A stretch of DNA of 64,000 nucleotides, taken from positions 9,718 to 73,717 of the forward strand of contig JANRJR010000070.1 of the NCBI GenBank assembly GCA_033763845.1. Reading direction: 5' to 3'. Source of the stretch: Gammaproteobacteria bacterium. GTDB taxonomy: Bacteria > Pseudomonadota > Gammaproteobacteria > DASZBR01. The position numbers and the translations under genes are program-made. This document shows positions 6,483 to 29,405 of the stretch, piece by piece. The notes beneath the pieces are model-generated. The model made no database searches. It was not told the origin of the DNA and was given only the letters and a program-made list of their open reading frames with translations. Numbering within the stretch: position 1 is the first letter of the stretch; every line of letters begins with the position of its first letter.

Positions 6483-6587
6483 GATTTCTCCAAATAAACA
6501 CGGGAAGTCTTATGATGTTGTGTTAAAACGCTAGTGAATCATCAACGGTTTTGCTACATTTGTCCATATTACATGGAGTTCGTCCTT

Positions 6588-7559
6588 ATGCTTATCGCTT
6601 ACTTGAAACGACAAACACTGGAAGCACATCAGATCACTGCTGAAAATCATATCTTACTCAAAGAAGCTATCTGGGTTGACCTCTTATCCCCCACAAAAAC
6701 AGAAGAAAAACTGGTCGAACAAAGCTTAACGCTCAACATTCCAACACGAGACGAAATGGTCGAAATCGAAACGTCGAGTCGACTTTATAAAGAAAACGAA
6801 ACACTCTTCATGACAGCTTCTTTTATTGCACAATCGAAAACTTCAGAACCGCGCATTGATCCCATTACCTTTGTACTTACTGAACAACAATTAATTACGA
6901 TACGCTATATCGAACCCCACGCGTTTAAATTTTTTATTGGTCAATTACCTAAAATTAATCCCGAAACCCACACCGCTCTGATACTATTAATTGAATTGCT
7001 TGAAGCAACCGTCGATCGACTTGCGGATATTTTAGAGCGCGTTGGCCGTCGTTTAGACAGCTATTCCAAAACCATTTTTCGTCCCACGACCAGCAAAGTT
7101 AGGAATTTAAATTATCAAAAATTGATGCGGGAAATTGGTTCTAGTGGTGATCTAGACACCAAAGCACGGGAGAGTTTAATTACATTGAATCGTCTTGTTT
7201 CATTCTTTGGACAAAGCGCAAACGCAAAATTTGATGCGGACGAACAATCTCGCATCATGACACTCAGCAAAGACATTGCATCTTTAAGTGATCATGCTAA
7301 TTTTTTATCAACAAAAGTGAATTTTTTGCTGGATGCCACATTGGGCATGGTCAATATTGAACAGAATAATATTATTAAAATATTTTCAGTGGCAGCAGTA
7401 ATATTTCTTCCACCTACACTTATTGCAAGCATATACGGCATGAATTTCCATTTTATACCGGAATTGTCATGGAAATATGGCTATTTATTTTCGATTGGAT
7501 TAATTGTTCTGGCTGCGTTTTTGCCGTATCGCTATTTTAAATATCGAAAGTGGTTATAG
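6588..7559 (+). CDS. corA: magnesium/cobalt transporter CorA
   Basis: C-terminal two-TM region with the YGMNF motif. Start at the ATG after ggag (6588); the longer ORF-track start at 6534 is possible. Confidence 0.85.
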   Translation: MLIAYLKRQTLEAHQITAENHILLKEAIWVDLLSPTKTEEKLVEQSLTLNIPTRDEMVEIETSSRLYKENETLFMTASFIAQSKTSEPRIDPITFVLTEQQLITIRYIEPHAFKFFIGQLPKINPETHTALILLIELLEATVDRLADILERVGRRLDSYSKTIFRPTTSKVRNLNYQKLMREIGSSGDLDTKARESLITLNRLVSFFGQSANAKFDADEQSRIMTLSKDIASLSDHANFLSTKVNFLLDATLGMVNIEQNNIIKIFSVAAVIFLPPTLIASIYGMNFHFIPELSWKYGYLFSIGLIVLAAFLPYRYFKYRKWL

Positions 7560-7576: not shown

Positions 7577-8101
7577 ATGGCAATTGAACAACTCATTGGC
7601 GACTACCAGACTTTCTTTTCAGATTTGCTGCATCGCCAGAAAAAAATTGGCATTGATATCAGCGGAATGCCTATGAGCCACTTGCTCTATCGCACTTCAA
7701 CGCTTCCTGAATATGAAATATTGCGCGATCAATTAAAATCTTTTTCCCGTGCATTTGTAGAAACGCAATTTAATGGACGGGCTGTCTCTGTATTCGTCCT
7801 TAAAGACGCCTTAAAACTTGAAGATAATTTCGAAGTCGATGTTATTGAACTACCCGCACCACGACCGGCACACATGTATCCCAGTGGTTTAGAAAGTATT
7901 GGTGTGGTAGTCGGTAAATCTTTACCAGAATTCATTAAAAAATATAGTAAGGTCTTAACAGGTGTAAAAGATCATGGCGAACATTGCCAACCGGCTTTTG
8001 TGACATTTGACAACGACAAGACATCAAAATTTTATAATATTTCATTATTAGAAATCGTTGCACGCCAGGGTTGGATCTTAGAAAAGCTGAATCTTGAATA
8101 A
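7577..8101 (+). CDS. YecM-like VOC-family protein
   Basis: Collinear with E. coli YecM from memory: ..HL.YR.ST...YE.LR..L...F.ET..NGR.V.VF.L.......ELP.P....YP..G.E.IG.VVG.. Confidence 0.65.
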   Translation: MAIEQLIGDYQTFFSDLLHRQKKIGIDISGMPMSHLLYRTSTLPEYEILRDQLKSFSRAFVETQFNGRAVSVFVLKDALKLEDNFEVDVIELPAPRPAHMYPSGLESIGVVVGKSLPEFIKKYSKVLTGVKDHGEHCQPAFVTFDNDKTSKFYNISLLEIVARQGWILEKLNLE

Positions 8102-8200
8102 AAAATTGATTTCTGAGATAAATATCCATGCTGTGAAACCTATAAAATTACTACTCACACTAAAGTGTTACCCATGTTTCCGGTACAAACCAACATGAAA

Positions 8201-8305
8201 TGGTGGCCGAAGGTGGAATCTAACCACCGACACAAAGATTTTCAGTCTAACGATGAAATTTAAATCGTTGTTTTATCTATAAATATTACTGTGGCGACCA
8301 TCACA
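8201..8305 (-). repeat. att-like repeat copy 1: 52-bp tRNA-Phe-like 3' half (T arm, GTGTC variable loop, CTGAAAA anticodon loop, CCA end) plus about 50 bp shared flank
   Basis: tggtggccgaaggtggaatc[t]aaccaccgacacaaagattttcagtctaacg. One T-loop substitution relative to copies 2 and 3. No 5' tRNA half is present. Confidence 0.7.
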
Positions 8306-8995
8306 CGTAGGGTCGTGAATTACCGCTAAGCTCAAAGTCTCATTAAGAATCTATACCCACAAAAAACTATTTAATTAAAGTATACTTACACTAAACAAGC
8401 AGATTTAGATCCCCGATCAATTTCAATGTAGCAAAACAAGTGAGATCAATGATTGACCACATTTTTTTTAGAAAACTTGAGAGCTCTAGTAATTCAGGAA
8501 GCAACCCCTGACAAGGTTGAGCAAGCATTAAAGACGTTCGAGTCTACGTTAACCAAAAAATAAATTTTCTTGGTAACTCTTTTCACTCAACCAGACAATT
8601 TTCTTTGATTGATATAATAAAGTTATCACTCTGACCAGAAAAGATTATTTCAGAAAAAGCGCCTAGATTTATAAATTCATTTTTATATTTTAAAAAAACT
8701 CAACTATTTCATAAAAAAATATGCATTCCTCTATGTTTCTTAAGCCTTTTTAATCACCACCAAAACCCTTCACGGGGAAGGTGGCCGAGAAGTTGACGCT
8801 TCCGCGGATTTATCATGATCAGTTTTATTAGAAGGCTCCTGACCTCGCGGCAGATTTTGATTACGATGAAAGGTATATAATGATCGTGTTGGATCTATGG
8901 TGTACGTACAACCTTCTGTAACAACGGTAGTAACGTTGCCAATGGTGGAGACTTCTTTCATAACAATCCTTTAACGACAAAAAACGCAATAAAAA

Positions 8996-9100
8996 TGGTG
9001 GCCGAAGGTGGAATCGAACCACCGACACAAAGATTTTCAGTCTAACGCGTGAAATTTAAATCGTTGTTTTATATATAAATATTACGGTGGCGACCATCAC
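8996..9100 (-). repeat. att-like repeat copy 2: tRNA-Phe-like 3' half plus shared flank
   Basis: 52-bp core identical to copy 3. The following ~55 bp (aaatttaaatcgttgttttatatataaatattacggtggcgaccatcac) is near-identical to copy 1. Confidence 0.7.
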
Positions 9101-9305
9101 GATTAGCACCGTAGAGCATAGTAGAGCACAGTTCACTCACTCAAAATCCCACAAACAAAAAATCAGGCTTATTAGAAAATTCTTCTTACTTCCCTCGCTA
9201 AAACACTGATAACCAAAAGATAATCGGAACTTATATATTATCAATCTCACTCGTTGCATTTCCGATCAAATTTGTCGGGTACGTTAAGCACTTATCATTT
9301 CGATA

Positions 9306-10745
9306 TTATTTTTTTGGAATGAAACTCTTCACCAAAGCACCGGATTGATGATTAAAATGCTTCGCCACCATATCTCGGGCACAAATTGCTAGCTTACGAC
9401 TAAAGAAACCAATCTTCGCTAATTGATATCGGGTCTCATATCCTGACCGTACAAGAGATAAAATCATTACCATCAGATCAACCGGAAATGTCTTCTCACA
9501 AACCAAAGCCAGCGCAATAGCCGACCACGTTCGGGAGGAAATATTATTGTGAATGGCATTATTAAAATTCTTAAGTTTTATCAGTACAGTGGGAGGAGCA
9601 GTATCCTTATCGTCCGATGGATGCATCGGCGCACTAAAAACATACCCATTTCCCAAGGTTACTACGTGAGACAAACTATATTCTCGATGAGCACGGTAAC
9701 AGTCAGAAACCGTTAGAACTCCATCTTTTTCCATACTCAAAAGATGTTTTTGGCTCAAACCTTCAACAAGCACCTGCGTAGGTGACAAAGAAGTAAATCG
9801 TTCACATACCGCTGGATTCAACGAAGCAGAAGAAAAAGGACTATCGCGTTTTACTCTATAATCAACTCGTTCTGTTCTAATATTATAGATCAGCGTATCA
9901 TTATCGTAACCAATGCGCCCGCCATCACTATCACAAAGTAAAATTTGATCGTCACTTATTCTACCCAATACAGTAATTTTTCTTTCCTTTCCGTTTGGAC
10001 TAGAAATGGAACTGATTTTTTGACCCGTGATAATGTCTATGACAGTAAGAAAATTTTCCTCAGGAGGGAGAATAATGAGTTTATCCGAGTGGATACTTTT
10101 TTTTGTTTTATAATTAATAAGGGCTTTATCCTCGAATTCCCAAGACTTTTCTAATCGATCTTCCAGAATATTCCAACAACACACTATTCCTGCTTGACCG
10201 TGAATTGCGAGAAAAGAACCTTCATTTAAAAATTGTAAAAGAGAGATAGATCCTAATTCACTGTTACCTCTTCCCTCCACGGCTAAACATTTTCCGGTAT
10301 CTATAAACCATACATACAAAGCCCCAAACATACTTTGGTTAAATAATACTATTTTAGGACTGGATAGGACGGTTACTAATCCCGGCCTCACACCGTTGAA
10401 TTGATCAAATTGAATGGAGCTCAAAAATTTCAATCTTTCTTTCTGGATTTCAAAAAAATGGACTCCCATTTCACGAGAGTCTAAACGAAAAGAGGACGCA
10501 ACAAGATAATGATCGTCTGTCCACAAAAAGTGATCTTGTCTCTTATTAAAAAAATCTGCGTCCTCTTCGAACAATTTAAAATGCTTCTCTTTCTTAGAAA
10601 TAGGATCGAACTGGTATACTCCTGCCCTCAAAGAGTGATAGTAGACATACCGGCATTTATTCTGATCATTGGATGGGATACATCTTCCCCCGAGATCGTT
10701 GTCTAGCGCCTCATACTCATAAACTCTCTCTTTTTCACGTGACAT
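9306..10745 (-). CDS. hypothetical protein, probable beta-propeller (WD40-like) with C-terminal F-box-like motif
   Basis: 479-aa ORF with repeated G..G.I.CW / DGGRIGYD segments. C-terminal TFPVDLMVMILSLV resembles the LPxEIL..IL F-box core. The only gene between att-like copies 2 and 3. Confidence 0.5.
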   Translation of the reverse strand: MSREKERVYEYEALDNDLGGRCIPSNDQNKCRYVYYHSLRAGVYQFDPISKKEKHFKLFEEDADFFNKRQDHFLWTDDHYLVASSFRLDSREMGVHFFEIQKERLKFLSSIQFDQFNGVRPGLVTVLSSPKIVLFNQSMFGALYVWFIDTGKCLAVEGRGNSELGSISLLQFLNEGSFLAIHGQAGIVCCWNILEDRLEKSWEFEDKALINYKTKKSIHSDKLIILPPEENFLTVIDIITGQKISSISSPNGKERKITVLGRISDDQILLCDSDGGRIGYDNDTLIYNIRTERVDYRVKRDSPFSSASLNPAVCERFTSLSPTQVLVEGLSQKHLLSMEKDGVLTVSDCYRAHREYSLSHVVTLGNGYVFSAPMHPSDDKDTAPPTVLIKLKNFNNAIHNNISSRTWSAIALALVCEKTFPVDLMVMILSLVRSGYETRYQLAKIGFFSRKLAICARDMVAKHFNHQSGALVKSFIPKK

Positions 10746-10870
10746 TCAAATCTCCTGCTAAACTTTTTCAGACTGAATTTTATCATTTTTTGATTTTAAA
10801 AAGGCAAACTGAGTATCTTAAGCAAAGCATAATAAGGTGCCCGAGAGCGGATGAGGGGAAAAAATAAAAC

Positions 10871-10950
10871 TGGTGGCCGAAGGTGGAATCGAACCACCGA
10901 CACAAAGATTTTCAGTCTAACGATGAAAATCTAAATTGTTGTTTTATATA
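10871..10950 (-). repeat. att-like repeat copy 3: tRNA-Phe-like 3' half
   Basis: Same 52-bp core starting exactly at TGG. The flank diverges after ~30 bp. Confidence 0.7.
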
Positions 10951-11158
10951 TAACTACGCACCTTGGCAACCCTTACAGAATGCTGAACGATGCGTAACGA
11001 TGTTGTACTCATTCACGAAAAACTCACGAGCGACTATTGTCTCTTTACCTGGGTGTGTTCTCATTTAAAATTTAATCGAGAGGCCTTAATCTGACTCTAG
11101 TTAAAAAAATCCATTTAGCTAAAATAGTTTTATTACCCTATGATGCGAGAATCATCCG

Positions 11159-12088
11159 ATGCCAAACAATTTTCCTCAATTTGAACCACATCCACACATC
11201 AACAGCTCCATTTATGAAGTAGCCTTACGCTTAGCGGCATTTGACGCAAACGATAAGTTTTATGCTACCGGAACCAGCGTGGCCATTGCAGGAAACTTAC
11301 TCCTAGCAGCCAAACACGTGATAGACGATTTCCTCAAGGAATTTAATTGCTCATATAATGAGAAAGCAAACATTACCATATGGGCCGTACAAATCACCAA
11401 TGACAAAGATTTATATGCCATTTGGGAATGCACCGAGATATTTTCGTGGGAAAATTCAGACATTGCGATCCTGCGCATAGCTCCACTTAATGACATAGCG
11501 GCCAAGCGAAAAGCGTTAACCTCCTGCCAATTGTCATTTCTTCCCCCTAAGCAGGGAGATAACATCGTAGCATTTGGGTACAAAGGGTTAAGCAGAGATT
11601 CTTGTAAGATCACAAGAGACGGTACAGGCACCAAACATTTTGATATTCAGGACGAGCCCCACGTCACCACAGGAAAAATCCTAGATGTTTATAACAATGT
11701 AAAAAATCCTTCTCGTATACCAGCACCGTGTTTTGCTACGGAGGCAAGAGTAGATGGCGGGATGAGCGGTGGGCCTGTATTTACAGAAAATGGATTACTT
11801 TGCGGAATATTAAGCACATCTTTCGACGTTACTGATGGAGAACTTAACACTTCCTTTGTAAGCCTTTTATGGCCCATGTTAGCGATAAAACTCCCCCTCT
11901 CAAAAGATAGAGGCTCGCAAACAACTGAATACTCTATACAAGAATTGGTGCAAAAAGGGCTTATATCAGGAACTGGATGGGAGCATTTTATTATTAATGA
12001 AAAGCTAGGCTTTATTTCACCCCCCGAAGAAGACAACGATCAGGCTTTAGCAAAATACGGCTGGATGACTTCAACTTTTATCCTGTAG
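11159..12088 (+). CDS. trypsin-like serine peptidase domain protein
   Basis: Catalytic-triad-like motifs in order: GTSVAIAGNLLLAAKHV (His), DIAILRIAP (Asp), GGMSGGPVF (Ser). Confidence 0.75.
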   Translation: MPNNFPQFEPHPHINSSIYEVALRLAAFDANDKFYATGTSVAIAGNLLLAAKHVIDDFLKEFNCSYNEKANITIWAVQITNDKDLYAIWECTEIFSWENSDIAILRIAPLNDIAAKRKALTSCQLSFLPPKQGDNIVAFGYKGLSRDSCKITRDGTGTKHFDIQDEPHVTTGKILDVYNNVKNPSRIPAPCFATEARVDGGMSGGPVFTENGLLCGILSTSFDVTDGELNTSFVSLLWPMLAIKLPLSKDRGSQTTEYSIQELVQKGLISGTGWEHFIINEKLGFISPPEEDNDQALAKYGWMTSTFIL

Positions 12089-18699: not shown

Positions 18700-19038
18700 C
18701 TAGCAACTTGAGCAAGTTTTTCCAAGATTTTTTAGATCAGAGGAGAAAGGTTTATCCTTTTGATTCATCTCGGCGAAAAATGAAAGAGTTTTCTTTGCCC
18801 AATCAGGAAGATCATTGCTGATATGATAATACATCCAAGTACCTCTGCGAGTGGCTGTCACGACTTTATACTTTCGCAGCAAAGCTAAATGCCTAGATAT
18901 TTTTGGCTGTATCATTTTTAAAGCGTCAATAAGGTCACAAACACACAGCTCTCCTTTTTCCTGAAGCAAAAAAAGGCATCGCAAACGCGTTTCATCTGAC
19001 AACAATGTAAAAAAAATTTCTGGTTTAATCATGCGCAA
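18700..19038 (-). CDS. arsR: ArsR/SmtB metalloregulator
   Basis: ELCVCDL metal-binding motif within a winged HTH. Confidence 0.85.
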   Translation of the reverse strand: MRMIKPEIFFTLLSDETRLRCLFLLQEKGELCVCDLIDALKMIQPKISRHLALLRKYKVVTATRRGTWMYYHISNDLPDWAKKTLSFFAEMNQKDKPFSSDLKNLGKTCSSC

Positions 19039-19097
19039 ATTTATAACACCTTTTAGTTTTGATTTATAGTTTTAGAAAGATCGTGCCCCCACGCTTT

Positions 19098-19538
19098 CTA
19101 AAGTTTCGGTGTCCATTTCTTCGTAGGCTTGAACTCATCAATTATTGTTGCAATACGCTTACCTATTTCATCTCGCACTTTACTAAATGCCTTCATGATT
19201 TGATCTTCGTCTCCAACAGCTTTCGCCGGATCTTCAAATGGATAATGTCTTTTTTGCTTATTGGGAGGAAGAACCGGACAATGCTCATCTGCGTGACCAC
19301 ACAATGTGATTACAAGATCTGCCCACTCTAGCATCTCTTTAGTAAGAACCTTAGATTGTTGTTCTGAAATATCAATTCCAATTTCTTTCATAGTTTGAAC
19401 TGCACGTGGATTAACACCGTGTGCTACTAATCCTGCGGATTTAACTTCACAAAATCCCTCACCAAATCGTTTCGCATAACCTTCGGCAATTTGAGAACGA
19501 CACGCATTGCCCGTACAAACAAATAAAATTTTCATCAC
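19098..19538 (-). CDS. arsC: arsenate reductase, LMW-PTP family
   Basis: MKILFVCTGNACRSQIAEG P-loop. Downstream Cys residues. Confidence 0.9.
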   Translation of the reverse strand: MMKILFVCTGNACRSQIAEGYAKRFGEGFCEVKSAGLVAHGVNPRAVQTMKEIGIDISEQQSKVLTKEMLEWADLVITLCGHADEHCPVLPPNKQKRHYPFEDPAKAVGDEDQIMKAFSKVRDEIGKRIATIIDEFKPTKKWTPKL

Positions 19539-19645
19539 GGAACCTCTCTGTTAATTCATTGTCGTCTTAATAAAAATACTCCCAACAAATAAAACTATTC
19601 AATCATTGAATCTTTCATCTGCTGGGAGAAAAACTTATCAATTAC

Positions 19646-20608
19646 TTATTTTTTTGTTGGGCAACATCCTGAACTAGGATTACAAATAGATGAATCTTGA
19701 CCTTGCATAGCAGATGTTTGTGACTTATTACTAGAATCATAAAATCCTCGACCCAAAGTAGGTGAAGCCGCACCCTTTTCAGCAACTTGCTTTAATTCTA
19801 AAGTGGGTCGATAAGCTTCAATGACTGCAGAGGCAACATAATTTTCCACACCGCTCGTCGACCAGTCTTTGATAAATGAACGACTCTCCTCTTTCACATC
19901 AATTTTAATATTCTCTAACCCTGCATCTTTTAACGCTTGCTTCAGTTCTTCAATGGGAGTTGCTCCTGCCATACATCCATTATAAAGAGCTAAATCCCTT
20001 TTAATATTTTCAGGCAAAGGGCTCGTCGCTACAAGATCGGAAATAATTAAACGTCCACCCGGTTTTAAAACTCGAGCTGCTTCTTTAAAAACTTGAGGTT
20101 TGTCTGTAGAGAGATTTATTACACAATTTGAAATAATAACGTCAACACTACTATTCTCTACTGGTAAATGTTCAATTTCTCCTAAACGAAACTCAACATT
20201 CTTATATCCACCTTTCTGTGCATTTAAACGTGCTTTGCTGAGCATCTCAGGAGTCATATCAACTCCAATCACTTTACCTGTTCCTTTTAGTTGCCGAGCG
20301 GCTAAAAAACAATCAAAGCCACCACCACTACCTAAATCAAGCACAGTTTCACCTGCTTTTAATCCCGCAATAGCAGTAGGATTACCACACCCCAATCCCA
20401 TATTGGCACCATCAGGAACTGCTGAGATTTCGTTTTCTGAATATCCCAGCTGCGCCGAATAAGCAGCGCCTTTATTTGGCCCAGTACCACAACAACTTTT
20501 TTCCACACCGCAACTATCACCTGCAGTATCGGCAACTGCTACTTTGGCATAAGCCTCACGAACACTGCTTTTGATCTCCACATCTTTCTGTAAATCTGTC
20601 GCTTGCAT
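19646..20608 (-). CDS. arsM: arsenite S-adenosylmethionine methyltransferase
   Basis: SAM-binding motif VLDLGSGGGFDCF. Cys-rich N- and C-termini. Start at the ATG at 20606-20608 after gagggg; the ORF track extends to 20752. Confidence 0.85.
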   Translation of the reverse strand: MQATDLQKDVEIKSSVREAYAKVAVADTAGDSCGVEKSCCGTGPNKGAAYSAQLGYSENEISAVPDGANMGLGCGNPTAIAGLKAGETVLDLGSGGGFDCFLAARQLKGTGKVIGVDMTPEMLSKARLNAQKGGYKNVEFRLGEIEHLPVENSSVDVIISNCVINLSTDKPQVFKEAARVLKPGGRLIISDLVATSPLPENIKRDLALYNGCMAGATPIEELKQALKDAGLENIKIDVKEESRSFIKDWSTSGVENYVASAVIEAYRPTLELKQVAEKGAASPTLGRGFYDSSNKSQTSAMQGQDSSICNPSSGCCPTKK

Positions 20609-20803
20609 AATCTGACCCCTCATAAAATTAAATTGCATTTCAGCAGAAACTTGGGGAAATGTTCGATTTGAGTACATTCTGAACAGCATGTTTTGTTGAA
20701 CTAAATATTTCGGTGTTAATGCTCGAAAGAATTCCCTCATAACAGTCTCCATTGAATTCTAGGCGGCTCAAAATTGAAACTAACCTACAATTTTGAGATT
20801 AAA

Positions 20804-21058: not shown

Positions 21059-22831
21059 ATGATTTCAATACTCACAACTGGTTTAGTCACAATTATAGGC
21101 ATTTTTTACTGCATGCTTATTCTCAGATCCGATTTTAGCTTGAGTGAAACAATCTGGTTAAGACATGCTACAAAAATCATTGCCATTCTCTCTGGATTAA
21201 CTTGTCTCTGGTTCATGCTTCGAACACTCATCGATACCAAATACCTTGCGATTCAGGACGGCATTTACGGTTTTAATTTTCTGCACCTTTTATCTTGTAA
21301 ATTAAAGCAAAGCATTTCTTCAACAATCCCATTTTTTCTAATGGCGATATTTTCAGGCATTTGCGGTCAACTACTGAAGTTAAAAAAAGGTATGCCCAGC
21401 AGAAAAACTAGCGGTAATTTTGGATCTGCTAATTGGGCAGATACATCAGATTTAACTGCATTGGGAGCTTACTCATCAGAAACAGGGCTTTTTATTGGTT
21501 CTGACGATAAAGGTCGAAGCTTATACTTACCACTTTGCAACAAATTAACCATTTCACCACCAGGTGGAGGCAAAACAACCTCATCGACCATCCCTGCACT
21601 TTTATCACACCACGGTCCCGTATTTGTTTTTGATATTAAAGGAGAACTGTGGGCAACAACAGCTAGATATCGTGCTGAAGTGTTAGGAAGACACGTTATT
21701 GTCATTGATCCTTACGGGGTTACAGCAAGCAAAGATTTTATTGAAGGTAAATCTGAAACGTTACGTAAAAAATATCACTTTAACCCGTTCGATTGGGTGC
21801 CAGAATTTCAGGGCGATAGAGATAGAATGATTAATGCGTTTGCCTCGTCTTTCATCATTAATGAAGGTGGTTACTCTACTCACTTTGATGAAAACGCTAA
21901 AATCTTAATCCGTGGATATATTGATTTTATTGTGAGCTCTAAACCAAAAGAAGAACGTACGCTTTCAACACTATACGGTTTAATGTCTGAAGATGTGACA
22001 TCAGCAACTAATACTTTCAATCAAATGCTCACCAGCAGTGGGCGAGCTGAAGCGGCTGCTAATCAAATTAGTCGCGTAGGGAATGACGAAAAAGGCAGCA
22101 TTCTTTCTACCAGTTATCGCCAAATCGATTGGATGAGTGATTACAATATCCAAGCAACGCTATCTCACAGCAATTTTGATTTACGTGATTTCTTAGCGGG
22201 TAATATGGATATTTATATCGTCTTACCTGAGGATCAAATCAAAGAACATAGCCGCTTAGTAAGAATGATGCTTTCTTTATTAATGAGTCTTATTGTGCAA
22301 GCAAATCCCAGTGAATTACCTAAGCAAAAAATATTGTTCTTATTGGATGAATTAGCTCAGCTAGGATACTGCCCCGATGTTGAACAATGTATTGAAGTAT
22401 TACGTTCTCGTGGTGTCGTCATATGGACCGTTTTCCAATCCCTGAATCAGATTGAATTATTTAAAAAACCTGATTTATTTAAAGGCGCCCCTTTAAAACA
22501 AATTTTTACAACTGATGACACTAAAACCATGCAATGGATTCAAGCCATTGGTGGCAAAAAAACTGTTGTCACTCAAACGGTTTCTACCAACAAAGGAACT
22601 TCGAAACAAAGTAATAAAATTATCGCTGGAGGAACATCCTCTCAAGGAGAAAGTGAAAGCGCACATGAAACGGGTGTTGATTTAATCCCCTTAAATGAAA
22701 TTCGGGAATTACCCCGCGATGAACAATTTATTTTTCTGCATGGTGCAAAACCGATTCGATGCAAAAAAGTGCGCTATTTCGAATCCGAAGAATTCAAAGG
22801 TAAGTATGACAAAAACCCTCTTGAAAAATAA
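21059..22831 (+). CDS. traG: type IV coupling protein TraG/VirD4
   Basis: Two N-terminal TM helices. Walker A PPGGGKTT. T4CP-like length. Confidence 0.9.
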   Translation: MISILTTGLVTIIGIFYCMLILRSDFSLSETIWLRHATKIIAILSGLTCLWFMLRTLIDTKYLAIQDGIYGFNFLHLLSCKLKQSISSTIPFFLMAIFSGICGQLLKLKKGMPSRKTSGNFGSANWADTSDLTALGAYSSETGLFIGSDDKGRSLYLPLCNKLTISPPGGGKTTSSTIPALLSHHGPVFVFDIKGELWATTARYRAEVLGRHVIVIDPYGVTASKDFIEGKSETLRKKYHFNPFDWVPEFQGDRDRMINAFASSFIINEGGYSTHFDENAKILIRGYIDFIVSSKPKEERTLSTLYGLMSEDVTSATNTFNQMLTSSGRAEAAANQISRVGNDEKGSILSTSYRQIDWMSDYNIQATLSHSNFDLRDFLAGNMDIYIVLPEDQIKEHSRLVRMMLSLLMSLIVQANPSELPKQKILFLLDELAQLGYCPDVEQCIEVLRSRGVVIWTVFQSLNQIELFKKPDLFKGAPLKQIFTTDDTKTMQWIQAIGGKKTVVTQTVSTNKGTSKQSNKIIAGGTSSQGESESAHETGVDLIPLNEIRELPRDEQFIFLHGAKPIRCKKVRYFESEEFKGKYDKNPLEK

Positions 22832-25358: not shown

Positions 25359-28196
25359 TCAATAATGCCTTACTTGATTTACTCCCTTTTTATTTACTAA
25401 ATTACGGGCAAGATTTTCTGATTTAGACCTAATCAGTGTGATTAAAATATTTATATCTTGTTGGGTATACTCCTTTTTATTCAGCCGCTCTTGAATGGCT
25501 TTAAACCCTCCGACCTCATATATTTTAATGACACTGAATCTGTTGTTTTCAATTTCACCCCCCATTTCCGAACGACCCATCAATTCTTCAGAAAATTTCT
25601 GCATATTAAGGCTATTCTCCACAGCTAATACGGAATAATGCCGACTTTCCTCTAACGAACGACAACGAGCAGCATGCGACATACTTACGAGTTCAGCCTG
25701 TTTAATTTCTAACTCAACGTATTGCTTTAATAAGTCTGGGAGAGATGGCGGTTTATCAATTTGATGGCTGTTCTCAGCTAGACACAATTTATTGTTTTGA
25801 ATAAATTTGGTTTTGATTTTTTCCCGTACCTGCTTAAGCTTTTCACTTATAAGGGCGGGTAATTTTTGCAAAAACCCTTCGTTATTAATTCCACGCCGCT
25901 CACAAAATGCCAATGGGTAATCCAATACACTGTCTTTTCTGGGCTTCCTGCTCACATTATTTTTTAAAGCTTCGATATTTCGGTGAGTCTGTTTATTTGC
26001 ATACACATGACAACTTTCTCGATGACGACTCATGGCCACATAAGCTAAATATTGATTCCACCATCTTCCTCCCAAATAAACAAAGCTATGATTGAAGGTA
26101 GCGCCTTGCGACTTATGAACAGTCGCAGCATACCCATAGGTAAAATCTCGATAAATGCTTGGGTTAATTACAATCTGTTTGGTGGGCTCATCGTCGAGTA
26201 CTACTGTAAAGGATAAAACTTTGCCTGTTTCACTCAATCGGATATTTTTAATTTCTCCAAAATGCCCATTGCTGACATCAATTTCTTTATCATTGAGAAG
26301 AAATAATATTCTGTCACCTGAACTGATATGAATTTCACCTCGACTAGAATTTACGGTATACCCTTTAGTAATTTCGTTTTGTTCGATGCGCTTTTGGCGA
26401 AGCATCATATTTAATTCCTTCACATCTTTGTTGCGATGTGCCATCACCAAATAGTCTTTTAAATCTTGTGGTTTAAGGCGGTTTTTTAATTTACGTAAAC
26501 CATCCCAATCATCCACCAACTTTTGCTTTGCGCTATAGTCATCTGATCTGAAATTAATAAACCCATTTTGGTAATAACGATTAACAGCCTCTCGGGTATA
26601 ACCTTTGGAAAATTCTTTTGTAGCTTCTCTCTGCCATTCTTCATTCTGGCGATACACATGTTGAAGCACTTCATGTTTTAAGTGCAATCGCTCCAACACT
26701 GCACGTAATGGACTGCCCGGGCCAACAGGTTGAAGCTGAGCAAGATCTCCAACTACGGCAAGCTTTGCGTTGGTCTTGTTCACAATCGTTAAAACAGATT
26801 CCATAGCAATACAGTCAGTCATGCCAGCTTCATCCATCACAATAACATCTCGAGACGTTAAAGTAATGATTCCGTTCTCCACACAAAACCGAAAAGACTC
26901 TATTGTGCGACTGGGAATACCCGCTTCTTTTTGTAATGTTCGAGCAGCTTTTCCAGTAGGTGCTATGCCATACACATTTAAGCCTTTCGCTTTCCAAACT
27001 GCATTTGCCGCTCCCAACGTAAAACTTTTACCCGTGCCCGCTTTACCGAGCACACACGCGATTGCCGTTTTAGATACCAGATGTTCAACTGCAGTTCGCT
27101 GCTCGCTGGTTAGCCGTTTTCCAATTTTTACCTGATATCTTTCAATGGCTTTATCAATTTTATGTTTTGCAATTCGAATATGATTGCGTTTCTGGAGTTT
27201 CTCTGTAGTGGCCTGGATGTTATTTTCAATATCGAACATTCGTCGTGTTGTATATCGCTCTTGGCCATCTTCTCCAACTCCTAAAGAAATTAACGCTTTA
27301 GATTTTTTAATGCTCTCCATCGCTGAATAAAATTCCGCATCATCATCTACATACGCTAAAAGCGCTTTGGCTAAATCTTTTTCACGAAAAACAGATTCAT
27401 GATGCTCAATCGTTTGAAAAATCTTCCTAGCCAACAGCTCAGGTTTTTGCAAAATCCGTTTTAAATTTTCTTTTTTGATTTCTTGATATTCAGCTTTACG
27501 ATCTGAAAGCTTTTCCCGTTTTTCAATTTCTTCACTGGCATGCCCTCGGTGAATACTGGGAATTAAATCAATGCCTTGGTCTTTGTAGGAGCGATGATCA
27601 ATACGCACGTTATGTTGATGAAGTTTTAAATGAAAGTTCGCATATTCAGCCCATTTTTCTCGCCACACATAAAGCAAAGATTTATCATTCCATTCAGAAA
27701 CTTTTTTTCCGAAACCCGATTGGACTAATTCCCGCGTTGTAAGCATCACATGCACATGAGGATTTCCTTTATCCCAATGTATACTCCAATCCGCGATCAT
27801 TCCTCTCTCAGAAAATTGGTTCTGAATAAATTCTCTTGCAAGACAAACACTTTGTTCTTCATTCAACTCAATTGGCAAAGAAAATTCTACTTCTCTAGCT
27901 AGACGCGCATCAATTCGCTCTTCAGATTTCTCCACAAGATTCCATAAATGTTGTGATGCAACATTACTCGATTTAAGAGATTCTTGCTGAAGTACATCTA
28001 AATTTTTTACCCATTGAGGAGAGTTAGCAGGAATAGTAATTTCTGAATGAACCACGTCCGGTTTATTTTCATAATTCCAGGTACGATTACATTGTTCATC
28101 AAAAATTTTGGTGGCGCGACGGTACGCGATAGATGCAACAGCATTTCTGCCCTTGCCCCGGGAAATAATTTTTACATTAAAATGATATATTGCCAT
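25359..28196 (-). CDS. traA: conjugative relaxase with MobA/MobL N-terminus and AAA_30/UvrD-like helicase C-terminus (TraA-like)
   Basis: N-terminus MAIYHFNVKIISRGKGRNAVASIAYR is the MobA/MobL signature. Walker A VLGKAGTGKSF in the C-terminal half. Confidence 0.9.
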   Translation of the reverse strand: MAIYHFNVKIISRGKGRNAVASIAYRRATKIFDEQCNRTWNYENKPDVVHSEITIPANSPQWVKNLDVLQQESLKSSNVASQHLWNLVEKSEERIDARLAREVEFSLPIELNEEQSVCLAREFIQNQFSERGMIADWSIHWDKGNPHVHVMLTTRELVQSGFGKKVSEWNDKSLLYVWREKWAEYANFHLKLHQHNVRIDHRSYKDQGIDLIPSIHRGHASEEIEKREKLSDRKAEYQEIKKENLKRILQKPELLARKIFQTIEHHESVFREKDLAKALLAYVDDDAEFYSAMESIKKSKALISLGVGEDGQERYTTRRMFDIENNIQATTEKLQKRNHIRIAKHKIDKAIERYQVKIGKRLTSEQRTAVEHLVSKTAIACVLGKAGTGKSFTLGAANAVWKAKGLNVYGIAPTGKAARTLQKEAGIPSRTIESFRFCVENGIITLTSRDVIVMDEAGMTDCIAMESVLTIVNKTNAKLAVVGDLAQLQPVGPGSPLRAVLERLHLKHEVLQHVYRQNEEWQREATKEFSKGYTREAVNRYYQNGFINFRSDDYSAKQKLVDDWDGLRKLKNRLKPQDLKDYLVMAHRNKDVKELNMMLRQKRIEQNEITKGYTVNSSRGEIHISSGDRILFLLNDKEIDVSNGHFGEIKNIRLSETGKVLSFTVVLDDEPTKQIVINPSIYRDFTYGYAATVHKSQGATFNHSFVYLGGRWWNQYLAYVAMSRHRESCHVYANKQTHRNIEALKNNVSRKPRKDSVLDYPLAFCERRGINNEGFLQKLPALISEKLKQVREKIKTKFIQNNKLCLAENSHQIDKPPSLPDLLKQYVELEIKQAELVSMSHAARCRSLEESRHYSVLAVENSLNMQKFSEELMGRSEMGGEIENNRFSVIKIYEVGGFKAIQERLNKKEYTQQDINILITLIRSKSENLARNLVNKKGVNQVRHY

Positions 28197-28238
28197 GATC
28201 AATCTCAAATTAATTATTATTCAATCTCTAAGCACAAT

Positions 28239-28381: not shown

Positions 28382-28660
28382 ATGACTATGACTGATTATC
28401 ATAAAAAGCTGACCATAATACAGAAACAACGTCAAAAACTTATTGAAACCGAAAAAGTTTTAATCGAAAAACGCAAAAAAGAAATTTCAGATCTTGCCGA
28501 AAAATTTAATCTTTTAACTGTCGACGATAAAATTTTAATTAATTTCTTTGCTTACTTTAAAGAGCACCATCATGAACCTCCCCCAAAAACTCCGCACAAC
28601 TCAAGCAAGCATCCATCGTCTCAACCTGAAATATGCGAGACTGAGAATGCAAGAACGTAA
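28382..28660 (+). CDS. TraC-like small Dtr accessory protein (tentative)
   Basis: Small basic coiled-coil ORF divergent from the relaxase, in the Ti-like position traA | oriT | traC traD. Confidence 0.35.
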   Translation: MTMTDYHKKLTIIQKQRQKLIETEKVLIEKRKKEISDLAEKFNLLTVDDKILINFFAYFKEHHHEPPPKTPHNSSKHPSSQPEICETENART

Positions 28661-28871
28661 ACAAGACACGCGGCAAAAAATTCAGTGGGGCGGGTTAATT
28701 AAAAAGGCCGGGCTTCATGAAGAACCTCCACCAGTTTTATTGGGATTGCTGATTGAGGCAAAAGAAAATCTTGAAAGTAAATCGGGTGAAAAATTTCGGG
28801 GGGAGTATCGATTGAAAGGCGATATTGTTTTTACATGTGAAAGGTCAGGGGCGAGCAAAGACCACCCCTGA
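28572..28871 (+). CDS. TraD-like conjugal transfer protein (tentative start)
   Basis: ARLRMQERKQDTRQKIQWGGLIKKAGL resembles the Ti-plasmid TraD core (RERKQDTR.KI.LGGL..KAGL). Overlaps the preceding ORF in another frame. Start could be 28548, 28572 or 28647. Confidence 0.5.
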   Translation: MNLPQKLRTTQASIHRLNLKYARLRMQERKQDTRQKIQWGGLIKKAGLHEEPPPVLLGLLIEAKENLESKSGEKFRGEYRLKGDIVFTCERSGASKDHP

Positions 28872-28883
28872 TTCTCTACTACT

Positions 28884-29405
28884 CTACAAACATGAGAACA
28901 CACGAATCTTACCGTCAACCTCAATATCTAGGTAATCACTAATAAATAAGTCTTCCGCAAAAGATTCATAATCAAAGTAATTACGAATATAATTGGGTAA
29001 TTTCGCTAACTTAGCATCAATCAACTGAGCTGCAAACTCAACTTTACTGCGATATTCACCGTGATAATTTTCTTCGATCGCTAGTCTAGCATCATCAACA
29101 TCACCACCGTAATACTCGGTAAGTGCTGCTCCAAGCTTACCATGCTCTTTTAAAAATTCAGCAATCTCAACGACTTTTTCAAAATCCATAGATTCACTTA
29201 TATGAATACTAAAGAAATTTTGATAGTCATGTATCGCCCATTCTTCTGCAAATGGCATTCGATTTTTTTTGAGCATTGCGTTTACCTCAGCCCAAATATG
29301 ATCAACGCCTAACGTTACATCAATCCAGACTCCATACAATCTGCCATTGTTATACAGCTCAAGACATGCCACATAAATGGATGGATTTTCCTCAATGTTA
29401 CCCAT
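28884..29405 (-). CDS. ardA: antirestriction protein ArdA
   Basis: IYVACLELYNNGRLYGVWIDV...AEEWAIHDYQNF matches the ArdA N-terminal signature as I recall it. Acidic C-terminal half. Confidence 0.7.
   Translation of the reverse strand: MGNIEENPSIYVACLELYNNGRLYGVWIDVTLGVDHIWAEVNAMLKKNRMPFAEEWAIHDYQNFFSIHISESMDFEKVVEIAEFLKEHGKLGAALTEYYGGDVDDARLAIEENYHGEYRSKVEFAAQLIDAKLAKLPNYIRNYFDYESFAEDLFISDYLDIEVDGKIRVFSCL

Follow-up and report, generated by a model that had tools for sequence, protein, structure and literature searches.

Stacked copies of a tRNA-Phe 3′ part as likely integration scars at the left boundary of a Trb-type conjugative element in an uncultured Coxiellaceae-like bacterium

The 64,000-nt stretch of contig JANRJR010000070.1 analyzed here (assembly GCA_033763845.1; hereafter the window) derives from a metagenome-assembled genome (MAG). 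In it, the 3′ part of a tRNA-Phe gene occurs three times in direct orientation, all copies lying where chromosomal backbone genes give way to a large Trb-type integrative and conjugative element (ICE). We conclude that these repeats are likely attR-type attachment (att) scars, produced by tandem accretion of elements through site-specific integration into the 3′ part of tRNA-Phe. This conclusion is carried by the repeats themselves, by their exact identity to tRNA-Phe, by a break point common to all copies, by the homologous non-tRNA arms that adjoin them and by their position on the backbone/ICE boundary, in a window that holds no recombinase. On these grounds we uphold the proposal of an initial annotation, made from the DNA letters, that the repeats are serial att sites at a tRNA-Phe integration site.

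Cores and arms of the tRNA-Phe-derived repeats

Each repeat consists of a 48-nt tRNA-derived core and, to its right (the tRNA 5′ side), a homologous arm of ~60 nt that is not part of the tRNA:

8201-8248, minus strand: att core copy 1, tRNA-Phe nt 29-76, 47/48 identical, C56 to A at 8221
8249-8310: arm 1 (P-arm-like), beginning TAACGATGAAATTTAAATCGTTGTTTTATCTATAAATATTACTGTGGCGACCATCAC, from alignment and nhmmer (E 5e-18), 77% identical to the arm of related locus L021
8996-9043, minus strand: att core copy 2, tRNA-Phe nt 29-76, 48/48 identical
9044-9106: arm 2 (nhmmer E 4e-19)
10871-10918, minus strand: att core copy 3, tRNA-Phe nt 29-76, 48/48 identical, likely attR-type end of the large ICE
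10919-10981: arm 3, homologous to arms 1 and 2, containing CACCTTGGCAACC, which repeats the tRNA acceptor/T-stem end in inverted orientation

The initial annotation had described three direct tRNA-Phe-like 3′ halves of 52 nt, none with a 5′ half, and both the number and the missing 5′ half are borne out. Matches to the 52-mer fall on the plus strand at 8201-8252 (1 mismatch), 8996-9047 and 10871-10922 (0 mismatches each), and none were found in 100 dinucleotide-preserving shuffles of the window; a 17-nt T-arm core recurs within the window at the same three sites only. All three cores are co-oriented and cluster within 2.7 kb at the backbone/island junction, with start-to-start distances of 795 nt from core 1 to core 2 and 1875 nt from core 2 to core 3. 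Read on the minus strand, the core comprises AGA, the final three nucleotides of the 5′ strand of the anticodon stem, the loop CTGAAAA with its GAA anticodon, and everything 3′ of that loop, namely TCTTT, GTGTC, the T arm (GGTGG-TTCGATT-CCACC), the acceptor 3′ strand TTCGGCC, the discriminator A and CCA. The anatomy annotated from the CCA end to the CTGAAAA loop is thus correct; the T loop TTCGATT, annotated for every copy, is not, as copy 1 reads TTAGATT through replacement of the universally conserved T-loop C56 by A at 8221. This change is unique to copy 1 and fits a displaced non-functional fragment, where such changes can accumulate. ARAGORN found no intact tRNA within the 64-kb window, and nothing in Rfam reached the gathering score there, the sole trace being a partial tRNA match of copy 1 with 20.5 bits against a threshold of 29.

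To place the core among known genes, we scanned the 48-nt sequence against one genome per species (185,579 species) and obtained 21 loci, 20 of which are intact 76-nt tRNA-Phe(GAA) genes and the last of which (L021) is a contig end inside the same gene; outside the window, the 48-mer therefore occurs only within tRNA-Phe genes. The hosts are Rickettsiella, Aquirickettsiella, Coxiellaceae and unclassified Gammaproteobacteria MAGs, together with one MAG record labelled Wolbachia and one archaeon. A core-derived 34-mer had no match in IMG/VR. The intact gene of this clade reads GGCCGAATAGCTCAGTCGGTAGAGCAGA-AGACTGAAAATCTTTGTGTCGGTGGTTCGATTCCACCTTCGGCCACCA, and the identity of every window copy to it stops at tRNA nt 29: after CAGTCT, the tRNA continues with TCTGCTC and all three copies continue with AACG, and none carries any of the tRNA 5′ half. 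The tRNA identity accordingly spans 48 nt (nt 29-76) rather than the 52 nt first annotated, the extra TAAC(G) already belonging to the element arm.

The arms follow the consensus TAACG(A/CG)TGAAATTTAAATCGTTGTTTTAT(C/A)TATAAATATTAC(T/G)GTGGCGACCATCAC. Arms 1 and 2 are 89% identical (56/63 positions), in agreement with the flank first noted beside copies 1 and 2; that flank is not limited to these copies, however, since arm 3 is 72-75% identical to the other two. A search with the arm profile returned the three window sites and one core-less arm in L021, and apart from the latter no extra partial or degenerate att copies were found in the window or in the 8-kb tRNA-Phe loci. At ~90 nt from the CCA end, the acceptor/T-stem 3′ end of the core recurs in every arm in inverted orientation (window 8290-8302, 9086-9098 and 10957-10971; L021 1194-1215). 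The inverted copy is the same in arms 1 and 2 (GGCGACCA) and differs in the L021 arm (CGACCACCA) and in arm 3 (CACCTTGGCAACC), the reverse complement reference being CACCTTCGGCCACCA. Shuffling gives p values of ~0.04-0.05 for arms 1, 2 and L021 and of ~0.001 for arm 3, in which the sequence changes lengthen the complementarity to the core end. When folding was compared with that of shuffles, only unit 3 was significant (z -3.5 to -3.65), with z of -0.6 to -1.1 for units 1 and 2. One possibility is that the inverted copy in the arm is a second integrase-binding site. The shared break point and the homologous arm together argue for site-specific recombination rather than random truncation of a tRNA gene.

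The chromosomal genes to the left of the array encode YceI, a thioesterase, LysR, an amine oxidase, ABC-F, PLD, CorA and YecM (all Pfam), in line with the backbone character first assigned to this side, and the array is reached through two features:

7577-8101, plus strand: yecM-like gene (Pfam YecM, 6e-19), the final backbone gene before the att array
8102-8200: chromosomal (B′) flank of 99 nt

The PLD and YecM proteins are 85% identical in amino acid sequence to those encoded in L021, 4.5 kb from the tRNA-Phe 3′ end in the Coxiellaceae MAG CAZLGL01, and tRNA-Phe is thus a native neighbor of the window backbone segment. The DNA to the right of copy 1 is, the arm excepted, absent from L021 and from L003, a second contig of the same MAG, and the repeat coincides with the break between backbone and accessory DNA. 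G+C content is uniform across the window (0.34-0.39) and, with the best protein matches, fits an uncultured Coxiellaceae-like (Coxiella/Rickettsiella-like) host. The gene for the Mg2+ transporter CorA (6534-7559, between PLD and YecM) is absent from the matching interval of L021 (5123-5747).

The mechanism that follows is inferred, as are the integrase and intact tRNA that it involves, the position of the crossover, the sequence of events and any mobility that persists today. The attP site of an incoming element would hold a 48-nt copy of tRNA-Phe nt 29-76 between element-specific arms, and a tyrosine integrase would recombine it with the chromosomal tRNA-Phe. The crossover would most likely fall within the anticodon loop of 7 nt, given that the identity to the tRNA starts no more than 3 nt on its 5′ side. 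On integration, the 3′ part brought by the element would complete the chromosomal 5′ part to an intact tRNA, and the displaced 3′ part would remain at the far end of the element, joined to its P arm. Repetition of this event at tRNA-Phe, or at a resident att site, would stack elements with a core and an arm between them and push the earlier 3′ part outward, which would yield, from left to right, the yecM backbone, core/arm 1, a 0.7-kb gene-less remnant, core/arm 2, an orphan-gene unit, core/arm 3 and the ~60-kb Trb ICE. The integrase of the ICE might still excise the inner units together with it.

Inner units and competing explanations

To the right of core 1 the initial annotation had placed a 0.75-kb remnant, a single gene of 479 codons and then the large element, all of which we find as described. 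The two inner units contain the following:

8311-8995: remnant 1, no intact gene; the longest open reading frame (ORF) has 63 aa (8770-8961, minus strand)
9306-10745, minus strand: cargo ORF of 479 aa (locus tag SFW07_06460), oriented like the tRNA; an orphan whose remote relatives are weak and beta-propeller-like

The 479-aa ORF, which starts 125 nt from the upstream core, has no match in Pfam or PADLOC, and a word-indexed protein search returned only the protein itself. A full HMMER scan identified four remote homologues (24-35% identity), one of them fused to a PP2C phosphatase, along with faint beta-propeller signals; the AlphaFold single-sequence model was unusable (predicted local distance difference test score 33). 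Promoter and terminator scans of 8000-11300 gave sites that were fewer, or no more numerous, than in shuffles. The arm excepted, remnants 1 and 2 are related neither to each other nor to the rest of the window. Derivation of the inner units from the ICE by deletion was considered and rejected, as they bear no similarity to it. No integrase remnant was detected in the window by tblastn with the ORFs that flank tRNA-Phe in the related loci, integrases included, and with the integrase of ICE locus L022 as queries, the best match (E 0.02) lying inside an unrelated ORF. Nor was a tyrosine or serine recombinase found among the ~60 window ORFs scanned with Pfam.

The segments 8249-8995 and 9044-10870 each lie between two cores and carry neither a recombinase nor a mobilization gene, which is the composition of a cis-mobilizable element (CIME). 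The best reading of the inner units is that they are CIME-like remnants, any integration and transfer genes of which are now lost. Their integrase-proximal flanks are poorly conserved, which argues for inert scars and makes their competence for excision doubtful.

Among the alternatives to serial integration, the one that retains the most weight, and is itself improbable, is an integron-like cassette platform that sits on the tRNA gene beside the ICE. The ~110-nt core plus arm would then be a portable site at which a tRNA-Phe-specific integrase inserts, excises and shuffles single-gene cassettes, and the inner units would form a working cassette array and not decayed elements, the cassettes being the orphan beta-propeller-like gene here and a DUF4238 gene in L021. 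The segments between the cores are indeed very small and hold at most one gene, which runs in the tRNA direction from a start close to the upstream core; the arms are conserved and the cargo is unrelated, the arm holds an inverted copy of the core acceptor end, and in a related MAG the same arm brackets a single DUF4238 candidate defense gene, 1.13 kb from tRNA-Phe. However, the array amounts to only two units here and a single one in the relative, no recombinase is present in the window, unit 1 lacks an intact gene and the L021 arm lacks a core, the folding of units 1 and 2 does not exceed that of shuffles (z -0.6 to -1.1), neither an integron-type R′ site nor a second core-type site is present, and plain deletion inside larger elements gives the same picture. 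The resemblance to integron cassette arrays, that of short, co-oriented one-gene units between ~100-nt recombination sites, extends to the integron core-site consensus RYYYAAC, which GTCTAAC at the core/arm junction happens to fit. In contrast to such arrays, half of the window site is a tRNA gene, there is no IntI, the sequence offers no GTTRRRY partner, and units 1 and 2 form no significant hairpin; identification of the repeats as integron attC sites was rejected on the last two points and for want of an integrase in the window.

A lower probability attaches to an assembly artefact, in which backbone, small fragments and ICE from different strains or organisms have been mis-joined at a shared repeat of 50-110 nt. 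The contig does come from a MAG, and a related MAG assembly breaks exactly at tRNA-Phe, with a 55-nt overlap between L003 and L021. The junctions nevertheless all differ in left flank and in arm variant, base composition is uniform (G+C 0.34-0.39), fragment polarity is consistent with how the ICE is oriented, and even a wrong order would leave each fragment-arm junction an att scar.

Less probable again is a single ICE integration whose attR was later duplicated locally, by unequal crossing-over, slippage or another route that is not site-specific. Such an origin would suit the spacing of the copies within 2.7 kb and the 89% identity of arms 1 and 2; it would, however, have copied the intervening DNA, and remnants 1 and 2 have nothing but the arm in common, either mutually or with the ICE, so that they are not local duplications; furthermore, arm 3 differs by ~25-28% from arms 1 and 2 despite identical cores. 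The least probable explanation, a tRNA-derived dispersed repeat (of the kind of a miniature inverted-repeat transposable element or short interspersed element) or a set of randomly truncated tRNA pseudogenes, arisen without integration, can point to short imperfect terminal inverted repeats (TGGTGGCC ... GGCGACCA) and is contradicted by exactly three window copies, all in one orientation at the backbone/ICE junction, by an identical break point in every copy, by the absence of target-site duplications and by the confinement of the 48-mer elsewhere to tRNA-Phe genes in the 185,579 species genomes, which also settles the initial concern that the repeats might belong to an unrelated dispersed family.

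Several observations weigh against serial integration or against parts of it. The intact tRNA-Phe and integrase of this genome do not lie within the window, which ends at 64000. A junction-specific 25-mer (tRNA core plus TAAC) had no match in IMG/VR or in the JGI metagenomes. To the left of cores 2 and 3, where the P′ arms of the inner units would be, only ~10-17 A-rich nucleotides are common; with P′ arms not conserved and no integrase remnant, the former autonomy of the inner units is only putative. The source is a MAG, and the order of segments between repeats of 50-110 nt depends on the assembler. Finally, those close relatives of the ICE that can be read use tRNA-Asn or tRNA-Thr, and not tRNA-Phe.

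The Trb-type element and its expected far end

The element to the right of core 3 is displayed in the window by its left ~53 kb, the main features of which are:

10919-64000: Trb-type ICE, left ~53 kb, cut by the window end (Pfam)
21059-22831, plus strand: TraG-type coupling protein (Pfam T4SS-DNA_transf)
25359-28208, minus strand: MobA/MobL-helicase relaxase (Pfam MobA_MobL and AAA_30)
28548-28871: TraD-like protein (Pfam)
28884-29405: ArdA (Pfam)
29769-30776: IS110-family transposase (DEDD_Tnp_IS110 and Transposase_20), inserted downstream of both ardA and the relaxase gene, with effector-like cargo following it
55083-63417, minus strand: trbI-G-F-L-J-E-D-C-B (Pfam TrbB/C/D/E/L/F(VirB8)/G(CagX)/I)

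The position of TrbJ is occupied by a 242-aa gene with no Pfam match. A relaxase, a type IV coupling protein and a complete type IV secretion system (T4SS) gene set are thus all present, as in an ICE of the mating-pair formation type T (MPF-T), or Trb, class. One end, consisting of core 3 and arm 3, lies in the window, and the integrase and the other end are not within it. Further genes encode MazF and LexA/S24-type repressors, and cargo and regulators fill the remainder.

Consecutive genes at 18700-20752 encode a regulator of the ArsR family, an ArsC-like low-molecular-weight phosphatase and an S-adenosylmethionine methyltransferase of 368 aa, and may constitute an arsenic detoxification or methylation module. 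Eukaryote-like cargo occupies 30975-32525 and 48948-53996, encoding a 516-aa member of the Ulp1/SUMO-protease family and a protein of 1682 aa with WD40 repeats, and ankyrin, U-box and Fic proteins are found at equivalent places in relatives; these eukaryote-like proteins are probably host-targeting effectors spread by conjugation. The ICE also harbors two genes for trypsin-like serine proteases (11159-12088 and 35296-36582), the first of which adjoins att core 3 and shows a weak likeness to the protease domains of the PADLOC RT-Protease and LmuA models.

In nucleotide sequence, the trb block shares 66-75% identity with ICE loci L022 and L023 of related MAGs. Gene order in L022 runs from tRNA-Asn through a tyrosine integrase of 413 aa convergent with it, cro, DUF6475 and other small genes to trbB-trbI; the tRNA-Asn is oriented like trb and lies 7.3 kb upstream of trbB. 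In a contig from JGI, the integrase lies 5.5 kb upstream of trbB. The trb genes of the window share the minus strand with the tRNA fragments, which places the region upstream of trbB to the right of 63417. The same side follows independently from fragment polarity: with the 5′ half missing and the 5′ side rightward, the intact gene must be located rightward of every copy. ICE synteny and fragment polarity therefore concur in predicting the integrase and the intact tRNA-Phe at ~69-71 kb, ~5-7 kb past trbB and still within the 96-kb source contig. No tRNA-Phe was found in the further Trb-ICE relatives L023, L026, L107 and L108, one of which had tRNA-Thr, nor in any of the 80 loci, nearly all ~45% identical, that a TrbB-profile scan of metagenome contigs returned. 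The integrase family of the L022 ICE is very abundant (at least 120 matches). The Trb elements of this clade use several tRNA genes, namely those for Asn and Thr, and here Phe.

Related tRNA-Phe loci and known tandem islands

In at least 8 of the 20 related tRNA-Phe loci, an integrase-like ORF ends 15-86 nt from the tRNA-Phe 3′ end; six of these eight ORFs are full-length or nearly so (324-374 aa), and the other two are short fragments or are cut by the locus end. Two representative integrases match Pfam Phage_integrase at ~1e-20. Loci L002, L004, L008, L009, L011, L012, L015 and L016 are Rickettsiella/Aquirickettsiella tRNA-Phe loci at which a conserved small integrative element directly adjoins the tRNA; its genes are those for a tyrosine integrase, convergent with the tRNA gene, and for small excisionase-like, repressor-like and replication-like proteins. 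In L009, a downstream flank that is conserved across many tRNA-Phe loci translates as the 3′ end of the integrase gene, and loci that share this flank and lack the gene probably keep an integrase remnant. The flank of these small elements is absent from the window, and they therefore represent a family other than that of the window elements. Across the Rickettsiella/Aquirickettsiella clade, tRNA-Phe is a recurrent hot spot of integration.

Locus L021 places a single DUF4238 gene (164-1126) between tRNA-Phe and the core-less arm (1182-1257), an arrangement that mirrors the one-gene unit of the window; the arm is 1.13 kb from its tRNA-Phe, and the gene matches the PADLOC candidate defense family DUF4238-Pers (7e-47). 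The two CAZLGL01 contigs (L003 1-55 and L021 1-55) end inside tRNA-Phe with an overlap of exactly 55 nt, which looks like an assembly k-mer break and suggests a branch in the assembly graph, possibly from an unbinned element at tRNA-Phe or from strain heterogeneity.

Tandem accretion at tRNA genes with decay to CIME-like remnants is well documented, and conceptually there is nothing new here. ICE-βox of Legionella pneumophila is bounded by 43-bp direct repeats, one of them within tRNA-Arg, and its excision and transfer have been demonstrated experimentally (PMC4010831); the Trb-1 and Trb-2 islands of strain Corby are, as cited in the same paper, likewise Legionellales ICEs at tRNA-gene att sites (Glöckner 2008, cited in PMC4010831). 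The window element resembles these in being a ~60-kb conjugative element with a T4SS and ~40-50-nt direct repeats, one of which corresponds to the tRNA 3′ part. It differs from ICE-βox in its tRNA-Phe target, in its uncultured, Coxiellaceae-like MAG host and in having three stacked repeats at the far end rather than one, and it is known from its sequence alone.

[quoted passage not shown] Like the CIMEs of the ICESt1 family in Streptococcus thermophilus, the inner units are att-flanked segments without integrase or transfer genes, arranged in tandem with an ICE at the target gene's 3′ end; unlike them, they involve another target gene, phylum and integrase, and their would-be P′ arms are not conserved. 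In the tandem ssrA islands of Dehalococcoides, the 3′ end of a single-copy RNA gene is directly repeated several times downstream of that gene, and the repeats delimit the islands (PMC3146451), being 20 bp long and present in more than a dozen copies, with a serine recombinase and an insertion point in the T-loop (PMC3146451). Extra conserved nucleotides adjoin the repeats and reveal the insertion point, and some islands lack an integration module, in both cases as in the window, where the repeated block differs in spanning 48 nt from the anticodon stem and in occurring in three copies. In the class I tRNA sites of tyrosine integrases, the crossover has been mapped to the 7-bp anticodon loop (Williams 2002, as cited in PMC1762012); the identity block of the window, which runs from the anticodon stem-loop to the tRNA 3′ end, has the layout of such sites, and its putative class follows from the extent of the block.

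With these repeats, the left boundary is fixed for a Trb conjugative element of ~60 kb whose host is an uncultured bacterium of Coxiellaceae-like affinity, and the stacked att sites provide concrete targets for primers and read searches directed at excision of the ICE, alone or together with the orphan gene. The clade is understudied and consists of obligate or facultative intracellular bacteria, whose routes of horizontal transfer are of interest.

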